This document shows positions 15,403-62,031 of a stretch of 64,000 nt of DNA, piece by piece (position 1 is the stretch's first letter; the number at the start of each line of letters is the position of its first letter). The position numbers were made by a program, and so were the translations under genes. This stretch comes from Escherichia coli (GTDB lineage: Bacteria > Pseudomonadota > Gammaproteobacteria > Enterobacterales > Enterobacteriaceae). Below the pieces are notes generated by a model that saw nothing but the letters and a program-made list of their open reading frames with translations, did not search any database and had not been told where the DNA came from. The stretch lies in assembly GCF_024700885.2 (NCBI RefSeq), contig NZ_CP117016.1, one strand, 5' to 3'.

Positions 15403-15891
15403 TTATTTGATAAGAAGTGAAGGTTTCCCAACTTTGAGTTGAGCACCGGGGATATTTATTCCTGCTTTTAGTTGGTGTTTGATTGCCAGTTTGTCGGCTT
15501 TAATTGTCGTTTCAAACTCAACGTATTCAGGAGGAAGGGTGCTTGAGTCGATGATTTCTACAGTTTCTGACGGTTTGCGGATTGTTACCTGGTGAATACC
15601 TGCTCGAATCTTTTTCTTGCCAACCATTTCAAGCGATGACGCTATATACGCCATAATGCTGTCAATCTTATTTTGAATTACTGCGGCTCGCTCATTTAGT
15701 GACTTTGCCTCGTCCTTGAGGCGTTCAGCATAACCAGATTCATTTTTAATAATGGCAAGAAGTTGCTCTATTTTATCGGTAAATTCTCCTTCCATGCCTT
15801 CTATTGTGTCAGCAATCATCTCTGGCTCTAAATCTGAATCCATCAATTTTGCGTATTCATTGGCTATTTCATATAGTTTGCTCACTGGCAA
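15403..15891 (-). CDS. Gp157-like phage protein
   Basis: 162-aa coiled-coil-rich ORF immediately downstream of RecT; resembles Siphovirus Gp157 family. Confidence 0.55.
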   Translation of the reverse strand: MPVSKLYEIANEYAKLMDSDLEPEMIADTIEGMEGEFTDKIEQLLAIIKNESGYAERLKDEAKSLNERAAVIQNKIDSIMAYIASSLEMVGKKKIRAGIHQVTIRKPSETVEIIDSSTLPPEYVEFETTIKADKLAIKHQLKAGINIPGAQLKVGKPSLLIK

Positions 15892-24381: not shown

Positions 24382-24559
24382 CCCATCCCAATCCCTTCAA
24401 TACCAGAAAGAAAGCGTCGAGCGGGCTTTAACGTGCGCTAACTGCGGTCAGAAGCTGCATGTGCTGGAAGTTCACGTGTGTGAGCGTTGTATATATGAAT
24501 GCTTAAATATGGTGGAACATAATGAGAAATATAAGCAACATAGACGAATTAAGAAATAA
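24374..24559 (+). CDS. ninF: NinF-like protein with 3' end displaced by an insertion
   Basis: N-terminal 35 aa ([37 protein letters not shown]) match lambda NinF as recalled; the remainder is unrelated, and the expected NinF C-terminus (CAELMSDPNSSMYEEEDDE) is encoded at 25030..25086 in another frame. Confidence 0.6.
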   Translation: MLSPSQSLQYQKESVERALTCANCGQKLHVLEVHVCERCIYECLNMVEHNEKYKQHRRIKK

Positions 24560-25031
24560 ATTATCATATGATGATGTTTTAGGTGTGCTTAGATGGAAAG
24601 TGTCTCCTTCTAATAATGTTAAGGTTGGCAGTGTTGCTGGTTACATTAGGAGTGATGGTTATAGGATGTTAACTATCGATGGTGTAATTACTTATGCTCA
24701 CCACGTTATATGGATGATAAATAATGGTGAGATTCCATTAGGGTATAAAATTGATCATATAAATGGAGTAAGGTCAGATAATAGGCTATCTAATCTTCGA
24801 TTGGTTACACACCAACAGAATGCACAGAACCAAAAGAGAAAAATAACCAATTCGTCAGGAGTGACTGGAGTATATTTCAATAAAGAGAGATGTAAGTGGA
24901 TTGCGAATATATGCGTAGATGGGCGCACCAAATATCTTGGAATATTTGCAAGCATCATTGACGCTATTGCAGAAAGGAAGAGGGCAGAAAAAGAACTGGG
25001 TTTTCATGAAAACCATGGCAGACCATAACTG
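24487..25031 (+). mobile_element. Inserted free-standing HNH endonuclease cassette inside ninF (approximate boundaries)
   Basis: AT-rich ~0.55-kb segment with its own RBS and ORF, flanked by the two halves of ninF. Confidence 0.5.
24522..25028 (+). CDS. HNH homing-type endonuclease
   Basis: 168-aa ORF with HNH motif (YKIDHINGVRSDNRLSNLRLVTHQQN) and AP2-like segment (GVTGVYFNKERCKWIANI). Confidence 0.8.
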   Translation: MRNISNIDELRNKLSYDDVLGVLRWKVSPSNNVKVGSVAGYIRSDGYRMLTIDGVITYAHHVIWMINNGEIPLGYKIDHINGVRSDNRLSNLRLVTHQQNAQNQKRKITNSSGVTGVYFNKERCKWIANICVDGRTKYLGIFASIIDAIAERKRAEKELGFHENHGRP

Positions 25032-26000: not shown

Positions 26001-26185
26001 ACGCCACAATTCAAACGATACCAGAGCTTCTTATTCAGACACGAGGCAATCAGACCGAAGTGGCGAGGATGCTTTCCTGCGCAAGAGGAACAGTGCTCAA
26101 GTACAACCGAGACAGCAAAGGCGAGCGTCACGTAATAGTTAACGGCGTCCTGATGGTCAAACAGGGCAAGAGGGGTAGACCATGA
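25997..26185 (+). CDS. ninH: NinH-like protein
   Basis: 62-aa ORF containing GNQTEVARMLSCARGTV, matching lambda NinH. Confidence 0.75.
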   Translation: MNATIQTIPELLIQTRGNQTEVARMLSCARGTVLKYNRDSKGERHVIVNGVLMVKQGKRGRP

Positions 26186-26805
26186 GACTCGAAAGTGTAG
26201 CTAAATTTCATTCGCCAAAAAGCCCGATGATGAGCGACTCACCACGGGCCACGGCTTCTGACTCTCTTTCCGGTACTGATGTGATGGCTGCTATGGGGAT
26301 GGCGCAATCACAAGCCGGATTCGGAATGGCTGCATTCTGCGGTAAGCATGAACTCAGCCAGAACGACAAACAAAAGGCTATCAACTATCTGATGCAATTT
26401 GCACACAAGGTATCGGGGAAATACCGTGGCGTGGCAAAACTCGAAGGAAATACTAAGGCAAAGGTACTGCAAGTGCTCGCAACATTCGCTTATGCGGATT
26501 ATTGCCGTAGTGCCGCGACGCCGGGCGCAAGATGCAGAGATTGCCACGGTACAGGCCGTGCGGTTGATATAGCAAAAACAGAGCAGTGGGGGAGAGTTGT
26601 CGAGAAAGAGTGCGGAAGATGCAAAGGCGTCGGCTATTCAAGGATGCCAGCAAGCGCAGCATATCGCGCTGTGACGATGCTAATCCCAAACCTTACCCAA
26701 CCCACCTGGTCACGCACCGTTAAGCCGCTGTATGACGCTCTGGTGGTGCAATGCCACAAAGAAGAGTCAATCGCAGATAACATTTTGAATGCGGTCACAC
26801 GTTAG
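26182..26805 (+). CDS. Q: Late-gene antiterminator Q (lambda type)
   Basis: 207-aa ORF MRLESVAKFHSPKSPMMSDSPRATASDSLSGTDVMAAMGMAQSQAG..., recognised as lambda Q including the Zn finger CRDCHGTG...CGRCKG. Confidence 0.95.
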   Translation: MRLESVAKFHSPKSPMMSDSPRATASDSLSGTDVMAAMGMAQSQAGFGMAAFCGKHELSQNDKQKAINYLMQFAHKVSGKYRGVAKLEGNTKAKVLQVLATFAYADYCRSAATPGARCRDCHGTGRAVDIAKTEQWGRVVEKECGRCKGVGYSRMPASAAYRAVTMLIPNLTQPTWSRTVKPLYDALVVQCHKEESIADNILNAVTR

Positions 26806-26847: not shown

Positions 26848-26876
26848 TTGACTTTTTGAATAAAGTTGGGTAAATT
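26848..26876 (+). promoter_or_regulatory. Late promoter pR' with qut site
   Basis: TTGACT (26848) ... TAAATT (26871) directly downstream of Q, matching the lambda pR' region. Confidence 0.7.
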
Positions 26877-26882
26877 TGACCC

Positions 26883-27076
26883 AACGATGGGTTAATTCGC
26901 TCGTTGTGGTAGTGAGATGAAAAGAGGCGGCGCTTACTACCGATTCCGCCTAGTTGGTCACTTCGACGTATCGTCTGGAACTCCAACCATCGCAGGCTGA
27001 GAGGTCTGTAAAATGCAATCCCGAAACAGTTCGCAGGTAATAGTTAGATCCTGCATAACGGTTTCGGGATTTTTTA
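26883..27076 (+). ncRNA. 6S-like pR' leader transcript ending at tR'
   Basis: Lambda-like leader sequence ending in hairpin AATCCCGAAAC...GTTTCGGGATTTTTTAT (tR', ~27018..27076). Confidence 0.5.
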
Positions 27077-27079
27077 TTT

Positions 27080-27154
27080 GGGTCAGTCGTATAAAGGTCA
27101 TTACGGAAGGCTGTTAACCTTCTTATCGTGGTTCGAGTCCACGCTGTCCCGCCA
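27080..27154 (+). tRNA. tRNA-like gene, anticodon GTT (Asn-like)
   Basis: Hand-folded cloverleaf: acceptor GGGTCAG/CTGTCCC (one mismatch), anticodon stem GAAGG/CCTTC with loop CTGTTAA, T-arm CGTGG-TTCGAGT-CCACG, discriminator G and CCA. Confidence 0.5.
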
Positions 27155-27159
27155 AATAT

Positions 27160-27235
27160 GCTGGTTTAGCTCCAATGGTAGAGCAGTCGCCTTGTAAACG
27201 AATGGGTAGCGGTTCAAGTCCGTTAACCAGCACCA
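27160..27235 (+). tRNA. tRNA-like gene, anticodon TGT (Thr-like)
   Basis: Acceptor GCTGGTT/AACCAGC, canonical D-arm GCTC-CAATGGTA-GAGC, T-arm AGCGG-TTCAAGT-CCGTT, CCA end; anticodon stem has two mismatches. Confidence 0.5.
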
Positions 27236-27477
27236 TAACTGAGCCGTAGCCACTGACTATCCTGAATTCATCAGTGATAGTTACGCTGCGGCCTTCTACA
27301 CATGATATTCGTGAAAGCGGGTGGCAGGAGGTTGCGCTAACAACCTCATGCCGTTTTGCCCGTGCATATCGGTCACGAACAAATCTGATTACTAAACACA
27401 GTAGCCTGGATTTGTTCTATCAGTAATCGACCTTATTCCTAATTAAATAGAGCAAATCCCCTTATTGGGGGTAAGAC

Positions 27478-27801
27478 ATGAAGATGCCAGAAAAACATGA
27501 CCTGTTAGCCGCCATTCTCGCGGCAAAGGAACAAGGCATCGGGGCAATCCTTGCGTTTGCAATGGCGTACCTTCGCGGCAGATATAATGGCGGTGCGTTT
27601 ACAAAAACAGTAATCGACGCAACGATGTGCGCCATTATCGCCTGGTTCATTCGTGACCTTCTCGACTTCGCCGGACTAAGTAGCAACCTCGCTTATATAA
27701 CGAGCGTGTTCATCGGCTATATCGGTACTGACTCGATTGGTTCGCTTATCAAACGCTTCGCTGCTAAAAAAGCCGGAGTAGAAGATGGTGGAAATCAATA
27801 A
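27478..27801 (+). CDS. S: Holin S (class I, dual-start)
   Basis: [34 protein letters not shown]..., lambda S. Confidence 0.95.
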
Positions 27802-44830: not shown

Positions 44831-45379
44831 TTAGTGTAATCTCTGATCGTCTGAATCGTGTAAGAACTCCATGAGACTTTGAACCGGAATTGGTTCTATT
44901 GATGATAATGTGAACACAGGAATATTGAGACTTTTGCAACGCTCAAACACTCCCTTATCATGAGTCCATACCTCGTCAGCATTAATTGCTCTTGCAATTG
45001 CTATTATTTGTCTGTCAAACTTAATTTTGTTTGCTGTACCTTCTGTGCTAATTTTCCTTAATTCTTTTAATGTTGGTATCGATGCGCATTCAATAGCAGC
45101 CAACTCATCAAATGATACAGTTTCGAAGCACGATAACGATTTGATAACATTCAGTTTTTCTTGTTGGTAATCTTTATGGATTCCAACTAAAAACTCCGCC
45201 AATACAGGAGTTGGAACGATGATTGTCCCGTTCTTGTTATCTATTCGATCAACAAGAGCTTCTGCTCTTCTTTTGGCATCTGGAATCTCAGAACCAAGTA
45301 TAGGGTCAGATAATCTATAATCGTGTTCTATATCTGATAGTAGGTATACCAGAATATTGGTATCTAAAATTACTCGCAA
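44831..45379 (-). CDS. PIN-domain nuclease-like protein
   Basis: 182-aa ORF MRVILDTNILVYLL... with acidic residues spaced as in PIN domains (D6, E~62, D~122, WTHDKG); start overlaps the upstream gene. Confidence 0.7.
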   Translation of the reverse strand: MRVILDTNILVYLLSDIEHDYRLSDPILGSEIPDAKRRAEALVDRIDNKNGTIIVPTPVLAEFLVGIHKDYQQEKLNVIKSLSCFETVSFDELAAIECASIPTLKELRKISTEGTANKIKFDRQIIAIARAINADEVWTHDKGVFERCKSLNIPVFTLSSIEPIPVQSLMEFLHDSDDQRLH

Positions 45380-46089
45380 TTTATCTTCCTCAGAGTCCTA
45401 AGGATTGAATCAACATCGCGTTCCTCGGACCACTGATCTCCAGGAACTTGCTTGATAGCATTAATAGCATCCTTGAGTGATGATTTTTTGAGCAATACAA
45501 ATGAAGTTATTTTTAGTTTCTTTAGCTCCCATTTGTTGTTCTTTTTTTCCCAGCACCCATCTCCTTTAACCCTAATATATTTGAATAGATGGGACCCAAG
45601 AGCTGCCGCCAAATCAGGGGTTGCCTCGCACTTGAATGTTTCACCGTTGGCTCCCTCAATACGCACAGGTATTGAGTTGTCTTTTCCGCCAACACTGTAT
45701 AGCCTTCCTTGAACTTCTGACGTTTTTGTTATGAGTAAAGGGATTGGCTCCTTTTTTACTCGCGGGAATGCGATAATGGTTGAGTGGTTTCGTCCGAGTA
45801 GTTTCGCTGAAAAACCATCATGCTCCAGTAAATTAACAATTTTTTGATACGCGGGTGATTTCTCTTTGGCTGAGAGAGAGGCCCTTGCTATGACAGCGTT
45901 ATAACAAATATCATTATCGACCCATGCATTTAAGTCAGCCGATCCTTCACTTACACAGTCGAAGTGAACAGAATCTGCAGAACCGTATAGATCTACGAGA
46001 GCAGACATATACTTGACCAACTTAGCCATTGACAGCTGGCCAGGGGTGGTTCCGTCAAGTTTTAATGTGAGTCCATTGCTTTTTTTCAT
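45370..46089 (-). CDS. Hypothetical protein (239 aa), partner of the PIN-domain gene
   Basis: ORF directly downstream of mnt on the same strand, overlapping the PIN gene by 10 nt; no recognised domain. Confidence 0.6.
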   Translation of the reverse strand: MKKSNGLTLKLDGTTPGQLSMAKLVKYMSALVDLYGSADSVHFDCVSEGSADLNAWVDNDICYNAVIARASLSAKEKSPAYQKIVNLLEHDGFSAKLLGRNHSTIIAFPRVKKEPIPLLITKTSEVQGRLYSVGGKDNSIPVRIEGANGETFKCEATPDLAAALGSHLFKYIRVKGDGCWEKKNNKWELKKLKITSFVLLKKSSLKDAINAIKQVPGDQWSEERDVDSILRTLRKINCE

Positions 46090-46642: not shown

Positions 46643-46860
46643 AGTTTATTGAGGTTGATGAGATTGGCTATGAGAATGCACTTGGTAGAGGTAAATCTTT
46701 AGTTAACGTTAATGGCATTGAGTCGATAAGGAGCGGTGAATTTACGGAGATCAGAATGATGTCAGGTGGAATCATTCCTTGCCGTGATTCAGTAGAGTCA
46801 ATCAAAGCAAGAATGAGTGGTCAGTGGCTTTATAACTACAGTGACTTACAAAAACAGTGA
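46639..46860 (+). CDS. Hypothetical protein (73 aa) between arc and ant
   Basis: ORF with overlapping start/stop to arc and to the ant upstream frame. Confidence 0.45.
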
Positions 46861-46922
46861 AGCCCCAACTGCGGGAACAGTCAGGGCTTCGGGTGTCAGT
46901 AAATCCGTGGAGAAAAACCAAC

Positions 46923-60889: not shown

Positions 60890-61040
60890 ATTTACACGCT
60901 AGTATCGGCTTAACCACTAAACACTCTAGCCTCTGCACCTGGGTCAACTGATACGGTGCTTTGGCCGTGACAATGCTCGTAAAGATTGCCACCAGGGCGA
61001 AGAAAGAAATGACTTCGCCTCCCGTATCTGGAAAGGTGTA
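60890..61040 (+). ncRNA. Molybdenum-cofactor (Moco) riboswitch in the moaA leader (approximate bounds)
   Basis: Structured leader upstream of moaA; placement from established knowledge of the moa operon, not folded here. Confidence 0.45.
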
Positions 61041-61041
61041 C

Positions 61042-62031
61042 ATGGCTTCACAACTGACTGATGCATTTGCGCGTAAGTTTTACTACTTGCGCCTGTCGAT
61101 TACCGATGTGTGTAACTTTCGTTGCACCTACTGCCTGCCGGATGGCTACAAACCGAGCGGCGTCACCAATAAAGGCTTTCTTACCGTCGATGAAATTCGC
61201 CGGGTTACGCGCGCCTTCGCCAGTCTGGGCACCGAAAAAGTCCGTCTGACGGGCGGTGAGCCATCTTTACGCCGCGACTTTACCGATATCATCGCCGCTG
61301 TGCGGGAAAACGACGCTATCCGCCAGATTGCGGTCACCACCAATGGTTACCGTCTGGAACGCGATGTGGCGAACTGGCGCGATGCGGGACTTACTGGCAT
61401 CAACGTCAGCGTTGATAGCCTTGACGCTCGCCAGTTTCATGCCATTACCGGGCAGGATAAATTCAACCAGGTCATGGCAGGGATCGATGCTGCATTTGAG
61501 GCCGGTTTTGAGAAGGTCAAAGTCAATACCGTGCTGATGCGTGATGTTAATCATCATCAGCTCGACACCTTTCTGAACTGGATCCAGCATCGCCCTATCC
61601 AGCTGCGTTTCATCGAATTGATGGAAACGGGTGAGGGCAGCGAGCTCTTCCGTAAGCATCACATCTCTGGTCAGGTTCTGCGTGACGAGCTACTGCGTCG
61701 CGGCTGGATCCACCAATTACGTCAACGCAGCGACGGTCCCGCGCAAGTCTTTTGTCATCCGGATTACGCCGGAGAGATTGGCCTTATCATGCCGTATGAA
61801 AAAGACTTCTGCGCCACTTGCAACCGCCTGCGCGTTTCCTCCATTGGTAAACTCCATCTCTGCCTGTTTGGTGAAGGCGGCGTTAACCTGCGCGATCTGC
61901 TGGAAGACGATACCCAGCAACAGGCGCTGGAAGCGCGTATTTCAGCGGCGCTGCGGGAGAAGAAACAGACCCATTTCCTGCATCAAAACAACACCGGTAT
62001 TACGCAAAACTTATCGTACATTGGCGGCTAA
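61042..62031 (+). CDS. moaA: GTP 3',8-cyclase (radical SAM)
   Basis: Start at [33 protein letters not shown] (CxxxCxxC radical SAM motif). Confidence 0.9.

Follow-up and report, generated by a model that had tools for sequence, protein, structure and literature searches.

P2-OLD, the effector of classical P2-lambda interference, is activated by Gam and kills through cleavage of host tRNA-Thr(UGU) on the 3' side of C28 and of C40, within paired CNG motifs of the anticodon stem (Govande et al., 2025, PMC12445682). Slower substrates include Lys(UUU), Asn(GUU), Val(UAC) and other tRNAs. K-12 has only one gene for tRNA-Thr(UGU), thrU, and phage tRNA-Thr(UGU) genes rescue cells from P2-OLD; the UGU anticodon class is required, and the rescue of OLD toxicity by tRNA-Thr is only partial (PMC12445682). 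The tRNA-Thr21 of phage 21 'also protected against P2-OLD': it showed near-complete resistance at site 1, its anticodon stem is shorter and it has the changes C28U/G42A, and for tRNA-Thr to resist OLD, an altered motif and a shortened stem were both needed (PMC12445682). A second nuclease, AriB of the PARIS system, has host Lys(UUU), Thr(UGU) and Asn(GUU) as substrates and cuts after nucleotide 40 in the site U36-A-A-U39-C40/A41 (Belukhina et al., 2025, PMC12409363). Lys is the prime AriB target and Asn(GUU) a biologically relevant one. The substitution U39A in tRNA-Lys abolishes cleavage, A41C and U16C reduce it, and position 16 in the D-loop is a proposed AriB contact; the Lys, Thr and Asn tRNAs of T5 together neutralise PARIS (PMC12409363). 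The 2024 Nature paper on PARIS does not mention Asn or Thr tRNAs.

The tRNA-Asn/tRNA-Thr module of phage 21 is already known and routinely annotated. The pair is recorded as tRNA-Asn and tRNA-Thr in Sf6, mEp506, Kapi1, BTP1, SfI and phage 21, with the remark 'similar to phage 21' in the Sf6 record. A literature search on lambdoid tRNA-Asn with tRNA-Thr found no paper, and the Kapi1 and BASEL papers contain nothing on the function of the pair. We analysed a copy of this module in a 64-kb stretch of Escherichia coli DNA, hereafter the window. A sequence-only reading of the window had proposed two tandem tRNA genes, Asn GTT and Thr TGT, at 27080-27235, and had remarked that late-leader tRNAs are known in lambdoid phages, as the annotations in phage 21, Sf6 and others bear out; it missed the near-identity to the phage 21 pair that sequence comparison reveals.

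The pair lies in a prophage that spans ~10449 to ~51083 of the window, at the lambda attachment site in the ybhC/ybhB interval. The prophage is P22-like, with P22-type virion genes and an immI region with sar RNA, and it also carries a lambda-type Q gene, pR', 6S leader and tR' together with an S/R/Rz cassette. The features that bear on the tRNAs are as follows.

26182..26805, plus strand: Q antiterminator gene of lambda type, 207 aa (ORF list; PGAP 'antitermination protein' in E. coli MLI114; aligns with lambda Q).
26848..26876, plus strand: pR' late promoter, TTGACT-17-TAAATT (promoter scan; near-identical to lambda pR').
27020..27079, plus strand: tR' intrinsic terminator, with its hairpin at 27020-27068 and a U-run to 27079, at the end of a 6S-like leader (fold; lambda tR' alignment).
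27080..27154, plus strand: tRNA-Asn(GUU), 75 nt, encoded CCA, G73 (ARAGORN; Rfam; PGAP; identity to phage 21, Sf6 and ST64T).
27155..27159, plus strand: spacer AATAT, 5 nt, AACAT in phage 21 (sequence comparison).
27160..27235, plus strand: tRNA-Thr(UGU), 76 nt, encoded CCA, G1-C72, C2-G71, A73 (ARAGORN; Rfam; covariation; 75/76 to Thr21).
27198..27198, plus strand: nucleotide 39 of tRNA-Thr, A in the window, whereas phage 21 and almost every relative have G (alignment).
27243..27292, plus strand: stable hairpin directly 3' of the tRNA pair (fold −28.2 kcal/mol, z −7.6; kept in lambda, Sf6 and phage 21).
27478..27801, plus strand: lambda-type holin gene S, first of the late genes after the tRNAs (ORF list; PGAP).

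The tR' hairpin folds at −21.9 kcal/mol (z −4.8), and none of 200 shuffles was as stable. It was identified by folding and lambda alignment, its loop exceeding the limit of the promoter/terminator scan tool. By alignment, the tRNA pair stands upstream of S in place of ~190 bp of lambda sequence that is unrelated to it, and lambda homology is back at 27236, extending into S at 27478. The region past the 6S/tR' terminator had been described as unlike lambda, and the alignment agrees, being divergent until 27236.

Several other elements of the window were recorded alongside this locus. The immI region is of P22 type, with a sar antisense RNA at 46856-46922 (minus strand, 83.6 bits) and arc/ant genes. 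Beside it, at 44831-46089 on the minus strand, a gene pair encodes a PIN-domain protein and a 239-aa protein; PADLOC returned no match for this pair or for other small accessory genes, and the pair could be a toxin-antitoxin or accessory module. An HNH endonuclease ORF (24522-25028, within the segment 24486-25028) splits ninF. The HNH segment is missing from E. coli JNE21-009 and from one viral contig (L099), both otherwise 99.99-100% identical relatives, and it looks like a homing-endonuclease insertion with presence/absence polymorphism. In the host flank, a Molybdenum-cofactor riboswitch (60910-61054, plus strand, 102.9 bits) lies upstream of moaA and is ordinary.

ARAGORN called exactly two tRNAs in the 64-kb window, both on the plus strand and at the coordinates first proposed, Asn(gtt) at 27080-27154 and Thr(tgt) at 27160-27235. 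In a whole-window search against Rfam RF00005, for which the gathering score is 29 bits, they scored 55.3 and 55.9 bits, respectively (E ~1e-9), so that both predictors support the pair. The CCA end noticed for Thr is indeed encoded, and it is encoded in Asn as well. In E. coli, AsnRS relies on the identity elements G34, U35, U36 and G73, and ThrRS on G1-C72, C2-G71, G35 and U36. All of these are present: GUU and G73 in Asn, and G1-C72, C2-G71, G35 and U36 in Thr. U8, G18G19, U33, the UUCRANY T-loop, the 7-nt anticodon loop and CCA occur in both tRNAs, and the sole exception is C14 of Thr (window 27173), which stands where a near-universal A14 pairs with U8 and where a few contigs have U14, a departure that the sequence-only reading had passed over. 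The Thr D-loop, CAAUGGUA, differs from the host D-loop, AGUAGGUA, at position 16.

Helical irregularities are present in both tRNAs. The Rfam alignment confirms those originally listed, a D-stem of 3 bp in Asn, due to U13.U22, and the anticodon-stem mismatches G27.A43 and C31.A39 in Thr; Asn also has U4.U69 in its acceptor stem. From such imperfections it had been supposed that the genes could be degenerate, and in its strongest form this reading would make both tRNAs non-functional relics, or mere RNA-processing punctuation in the late transcript. It could draw on the non-canonical U4.U69 and U13.U22 of Asn and C14, G27.A43 and C31.A39 of Thr, and on scores of ~55 bits that lie below the 75-77 bits that Rfam gives the N4 and P7 tRNAs. 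The evolutionary record is at odds with it. Identical Asn sequences occur in 104 of the 120 viral contigs among the matches listed, and the variants are mostly in loops or wobble-compatible; the last 25 nt of Asn were fixed by the contig search pattern, so that no variation is possible there. For Thr, we aligned 21-type sequences with N4, P7, host thrU and T5 relatives: 95.2% of helix cells were paired versus 23-50% in slid controls, 0 of 500 shuffles reached the observed values, and 14 of 21 helix pairs had changes on both sides. A natural double change, G5-C68 to U5-A68, is found in the Thr of 6 contigs among the viral matches listed. Nearly all unpaired Thr cells lie in the anticodon stem, at 27:43 in every one of the five 21-type rows and at 31:39 in the window only. 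Given the near-invariance of Asn and the compensatory changes in Thr, degeneracy is not supported. Every imperfection except A39 is fixed across the family, and the short Thr stem is tied to P2-OLD resistance (PMC12445682); in addition, the anticodon loops, T-loops, G18G19, discriminators and CCA are intact, and the phage 21 tRNA-Thr is functional by experiment, with the UGU anticodon class required (PMC12445682). Judged by their sequences, both are genuine, functional tRNA genes rather than degenerate ones, and we regard relics as very improbable.

Capture from the host does not account for these genes and was rejected. Thr is just 72% identical to its host counterpart thrU and Asn 63% to asnT, whereas Thr is 83-87% identical to the P7 and N4 tRNAs. 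Over part of its length, Asn is ~84% identical to tRNA-Asn of T4-like and jumbo phages.

The arrangement of the locus suggests how the pair would be expressed. The end of the tR' U-run (27079) abuts G1 of tRNA-Asn (27080), and pR' is the only promoter-like site that the scan found upstream of the tRNAs. A separate promoter for the tRNAs was considered and rejected as unsupported, the scan having given pR' only and none on the minus strand. Because pR' is the sole promoter-like site and tR' abuts the 5' end of Asn, we infer that Q antitermination is necessary for tRNA expression, and the tRNAs would be the first, Q-dependent products of the late transcript. The hairpin at 27243-27292 is followed by a T-run in phage 21 and lacks one in the window and in lambda; in the phage L record a terminator is marked downstream of the tRNA pair. 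The hairpin may serve in tRNA 3' processing or be what is left of a terminator. In published RNA-seq of the Kapi1 lysogen an antisense signal over the homologous tRNAs is clear, and it is similar in BTP1 (PMC12922286); the scan found no promoter-like site on the minus strand of 27080-27235 despite that signal. We also considered whether the 'aRNA' of phage 21 record AJ237660 is an antisense RNA and rejected this, as it is the short pR'-tR' leader transcript.

The pair is widespread. Among 5,426 complete E. coli genomes, 368 carry it and PGAP annotates it there; at least 120 viral contigs have it too. HK446 and mEp506 match the region at 98.6% identity, Kapi1 and Sf6 at ~97%. In 119 viral contigs among the matches listed, the tR' that precedes the pair is 21-type in 92, other in 18 and lambda-type, as here, in just 9. 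Since varied tR' types stand ahead of it, the pair acts as a mosaic module that has the terminator as its boundary. The second slot of this module appears to be exchangeable, because chimeric tRNAs and a pairing of Asn with tRNA-Arg(UCU) occur: two of the contigs L010-L129 have a chimeric second tRNA, with nt 1-25 of 21-type Thr and a thrU-like 3' part, and one has the same Asn with tRNA-Arg(UCU). The anticodon stem of the chimeric Thr (ACUGA/UCAUC) is again shortened, and its site-2 motif is altered. In ST64T (L008, 1286-1357), phage L (L134, 686-757) and PS3, the second tRNA is a divergent 72-nt derivative with a Thr-like acceptor stem, C33 in place of U33 and no long variable arm; it is annotated as tRNA-Leu(TAA), scores 42 bits with Rfam and receives no ARAGORN call.

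The most familiar explanation for such genes would be pure codon supplementation, with no role against defence nucleases. ACA is used at 17.0 per 1000 in late genes versus 5.6 in flanking host genes, a 3.0-fold enrichment and the third-highest ratio of all codons; K-12 has its single thrU gene for this isoacceptor, and the tRNAs directly precede the most heavily translated genes. The Asn codons AAC and AAT fit far less well, at 47.0 per 1000 in late genes and 40.5 in flanking host genes, a mere 1.16-fold difference. Moreover, AGA, AGG, GCT, TCA and CTT are enriched as much as ACA or more, yet are without a phage tRNA, and the tRNAs have low identity to the host versions and belong to phage-circulating lineages. 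Divergence from the host tRNAs matters, beyond dosage alone. For Thr we take ACA supply as a secondary benefit compatible with a role against nucleases; it explains Asn poorly, and we think it unlikely that codon supply is the whole story. The codon-usage comparison with the host that the sequence-only reading had in mind came out positive for ACA and weak for Asn. Its suggestion that the tRNAs may support late-gene translation was reasonable, considering their place behind tR' and the ACA enrichment; what it lacked was the specific sense of replacing nuclease-cut host tRNAs.

That specific sense emerges from comparing the anticodon arms with the published cleavage sites. With Thr21 taken from the phage 21 genome OL657228, the window Thr is identical at 75 of 76 positions to the tested tRNA, and the one difference falls within the anticodon stem, on which both resistance and function depend. 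The window stem, GUCGC/ACGAA versus host ACUGA/UCAGU, has U28-A42 and altered CNG motifs, and it is shortened by the unpaired G27.A43 and additionally by C31.A39. By this comparison the window tRNA-Thr shares the Thr21 features linked to P2-OLD resistance, the protection data being those for the G39 allele. The phage Asn also departs from its host counterpart: host asnT has both CNG motifs (GCGGA/UCCGU) and the phage Asn neither (GAAGG/CCUUC), and at positions 39 and 41 the phage tRNA has C39 and U41 versus U39 and C41 in the host. As a point against a role for Asn, its anticodon stem has the full 5 bp, unlike OLD-resistant Thr.

Both window tRNAs carry substitutions in the AriB site (U36 to C40/A41) and at U16. 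Over nucleotides 36-41 these are:

tRNA-Thr(UGU): host UAAUCA, window UAAACG; window position 16 is A.
tRNA-Asn(GUU): host UAAUCC, window UAACCU; window position 16 is A.

ARAGORN found no tRNA-Lys(UUU) in the 64-kb window, leaving the isoacceptor set for T5-type PARIS evasion incomplete; since the prime target is Lys, the pair alone cannot neutralise B185 PARIS.

Whether this prophage perturbs RecBCD, and hence triggers OLD-type defences, is a question on which two of its products bear. At 15403-15885 on the minus strand it encodes a Mu Gam-like end-protection protein (PHROG 253, E 5e-53; PGAP name 'siphovirus Gp157 family') that adjoins a RecT recombinase gene. A PHROGs search of the prophage for a possible OLD trigger, either lambda Gam or P22 Abc2, returned only RecT and the Mu Gam-like protein. 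A further candidate trigger, a 98-aa protein, matches a PHROGs family of unknown function.

The A39 allele deserves separate consideration, as C31.A39 is the only irregularity specific to this prophage lineage. The substitution G39A at 27198 turns the C31-G39 pair into a C31.A39 mismatch; in the Thr alignment, each of the eight remaining rows has a standard pair at 31:39. A39 was found in 1 of 120 viral contigs among the matches listed and in 2 of 344 E. coli genomes carrying this tRNA. All carriers fall in one prophage lineage whose members match at 99.99-100% between Q and the portal gene; what separates them is nin-region mosaicism and the HNH insertion, and the isolates come from Mali and Japan. 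The Rfam score falls by 5.6 bits, from 61.5 for the phage 21 G39 allele to 55.9 for the window, and in A39 Thr the predicted minimum-energy fold ceases to be the cloverleaf, having lost the anticodon helix.

From the lost pair, the lower score and the altered fold it follows that this tRNA-Thr may be impaired. On that reading G39A is slightly deleterious and was fixed by drift, the Thr of this prophage is decaying or impaired, and only Asn is fully functional. The rarity of A39, its confinement to one near-identical lineage and the breaking of a pair that is otherwise standard speak for it, as do the two model-based indications, the score and the fold. Set against this, A39 has persisted through changes in the nin mosaic and the HNH difference, in isolates from two countries; the score is still about twice the threshold; stem shortening is itself part of the known OLD-resistance mechanism; and U39A in tRNA-Lys abolishes AriB cleavage, which also permits an adaptive reading. 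We therefore hold an impaired Thr to be the less probable outcome, though one to be taken seriously, and grant the same limited credence to A39 being mildly deleterious as judged from score and predicted fold. Alternatively, A39 could make the tRNA harder to cleave, given the importance to the nucleases of both the shortened stem and position 39. In either case, the natural G39A change is a ready-made point mutant at a position relevant to both P2-OLD and AriB.

Taken together, we consider it probable that the pair are nuclease-resistant, Q-dependent replacement tRNAs that also supply ACA decoding. In this model, the phage 21-type Asn(GUU)/Thr(UGU) module of many lambdoid and P22-like phages would head the late transcript. 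pR' would fire constitutively and transcription would be halted at tR', one base before tRNA-Asn, so that the tRNAs would be made only upon Q antitermination; host tRNA-processing enzymes would then excise both, with CCA already encoded. Each tRNA would have diverged from the host version while its charging elements stayed. The main job of the pair would be to stand in for host tRNAs destroyed by OLD-family Toprim nucleases during lambdoid infection, as P2-OLD cuts host tRNA-Thr(UGU) fastest and Asn(GUU) too, and the AriB targets are Lys(UUU), Thr(UGU) and Asn(GUU). Phage tRNA-Thr would escape via U28-A42 in place of C28-G42 and a stem shortened by G27.A43, and because it escapes cleavage the ACA codons of late genes would still be readable. 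Extra supply of a minor ACA-reading tRNA would be a second benefit, not exclusive of the first. As expression would be late and Q-dependent, early genes, with ACA at 15.5 per 1000, would go unprotected. If this is right, the 'imperfections' of the sequence are adaptive features of a counter-defence tRNA.

By analogy, we propose the same nuclease-replacement role for tRNA-Asn, because host Asn(GUU) is a P2-OLD substrate and an AriB target and the phage Asn lacks CNG motifs. A bolder version, which we offer only tentatively, holds that the pair is a two-part anti-Toprim-nuclease cassette in which Asn is also nuclease-resistant and G39A is an escape step, not damage. If true, the cassette would account for the joint occurrence of just these two isoacceptors, Asn(GUU) and Thr(UGU), across lambdoid, P1-like and N4-like phages, and G39A would shorten the anticodon stem further or remove a position-39 determinant.

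The closest described counterpart of the locus is that of phage 21 (OL657228, 39591-39746). The two share gene order, the 5-nt spacing and a site directly after tR' and before the lysis genes (S21 in phage 21); Asn is 100% identical and Thr 75/76, and U28-A42 and the stem shortened by G27.A43 are common to both. They differ at Thr nucleotide 39 (A in the window, G in phage 21), in the spacer (T in the window, C in phage 21) and in the flanks, which are lambda-type in the window (Q, pR', 6S, tR', S/R/Rz) and comprise Q21 and the S21 pinholin in phage 21. The P22-like phages Sf6, Kapi1, BTP1, SfI, HK446, mEp506 and Bas106 have the same module at 98-99.4% identity. Of these, HK446, mEp506 and Kapi1 share lambda-type flanks with the window; mEp506 and Sf6, the two checked, have G39, and in every listed P22-like phage record the pair departs from that of the window at one position or more.

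Among other lambdoid phages, the Stx phage 933W is reported (Plunkett et al., 1999) to carry the tRNA genes ileZ-argN-argO between Q and stx2/S. It resembles the window in having late-leader tRNA genes downstream of pR'/tR'. The 933W tRNAs read rare AUA and AGA/AGG codons and are classically explained by codon supply, and their isoacceptors differ from those of the window. The match of Stx phages to our query was confined to its first 29 nt, the tR' end.

T5, with 24 tRNAs, has in common with the window two of its three isoacceptors that together neutralise PARIS, and in both phages these tRNAs are substituted relative to the host at or near positions 39-41 and at D-loop position 16. In contrast, the window phage is temperate, has 2 tRNAs rather than 24 and is without tRNA-Lys, and the sequences are unrelated, at 62-66% identity.

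The order Asn(GUU) then Thr(UGU) is also that of the P1/P7 trnA-trnT tandem in the ban operon and of the N4 cluster. The window Thr is homologous to those of P7 (83%) and N4 (87%), whereas their Asn is of another lineage, at 59-64% identity. Expression differs as well, being C1-controlled in the ban operon of P7 and, we infer, Q-dependent in the window. In P7, Thr still has the two CNG motifs and 5 bp in its stem, and UAAUCA is unchanged in Asn; as P7 retains these sensitive motifs, the escape signature is not universal among phage Asn/Thr pairs. The combination of Asn(GUU) with Thr(UGU) nevertheless recurs in these unrelated coliphages, the P7/P1 tandem and N4, and the match of Asn to a secondary target of two Toprim tRNases offers a testable hypothesis for the co-occurrence of Asn and Thr in unrelated temperate and virulent coliphages.
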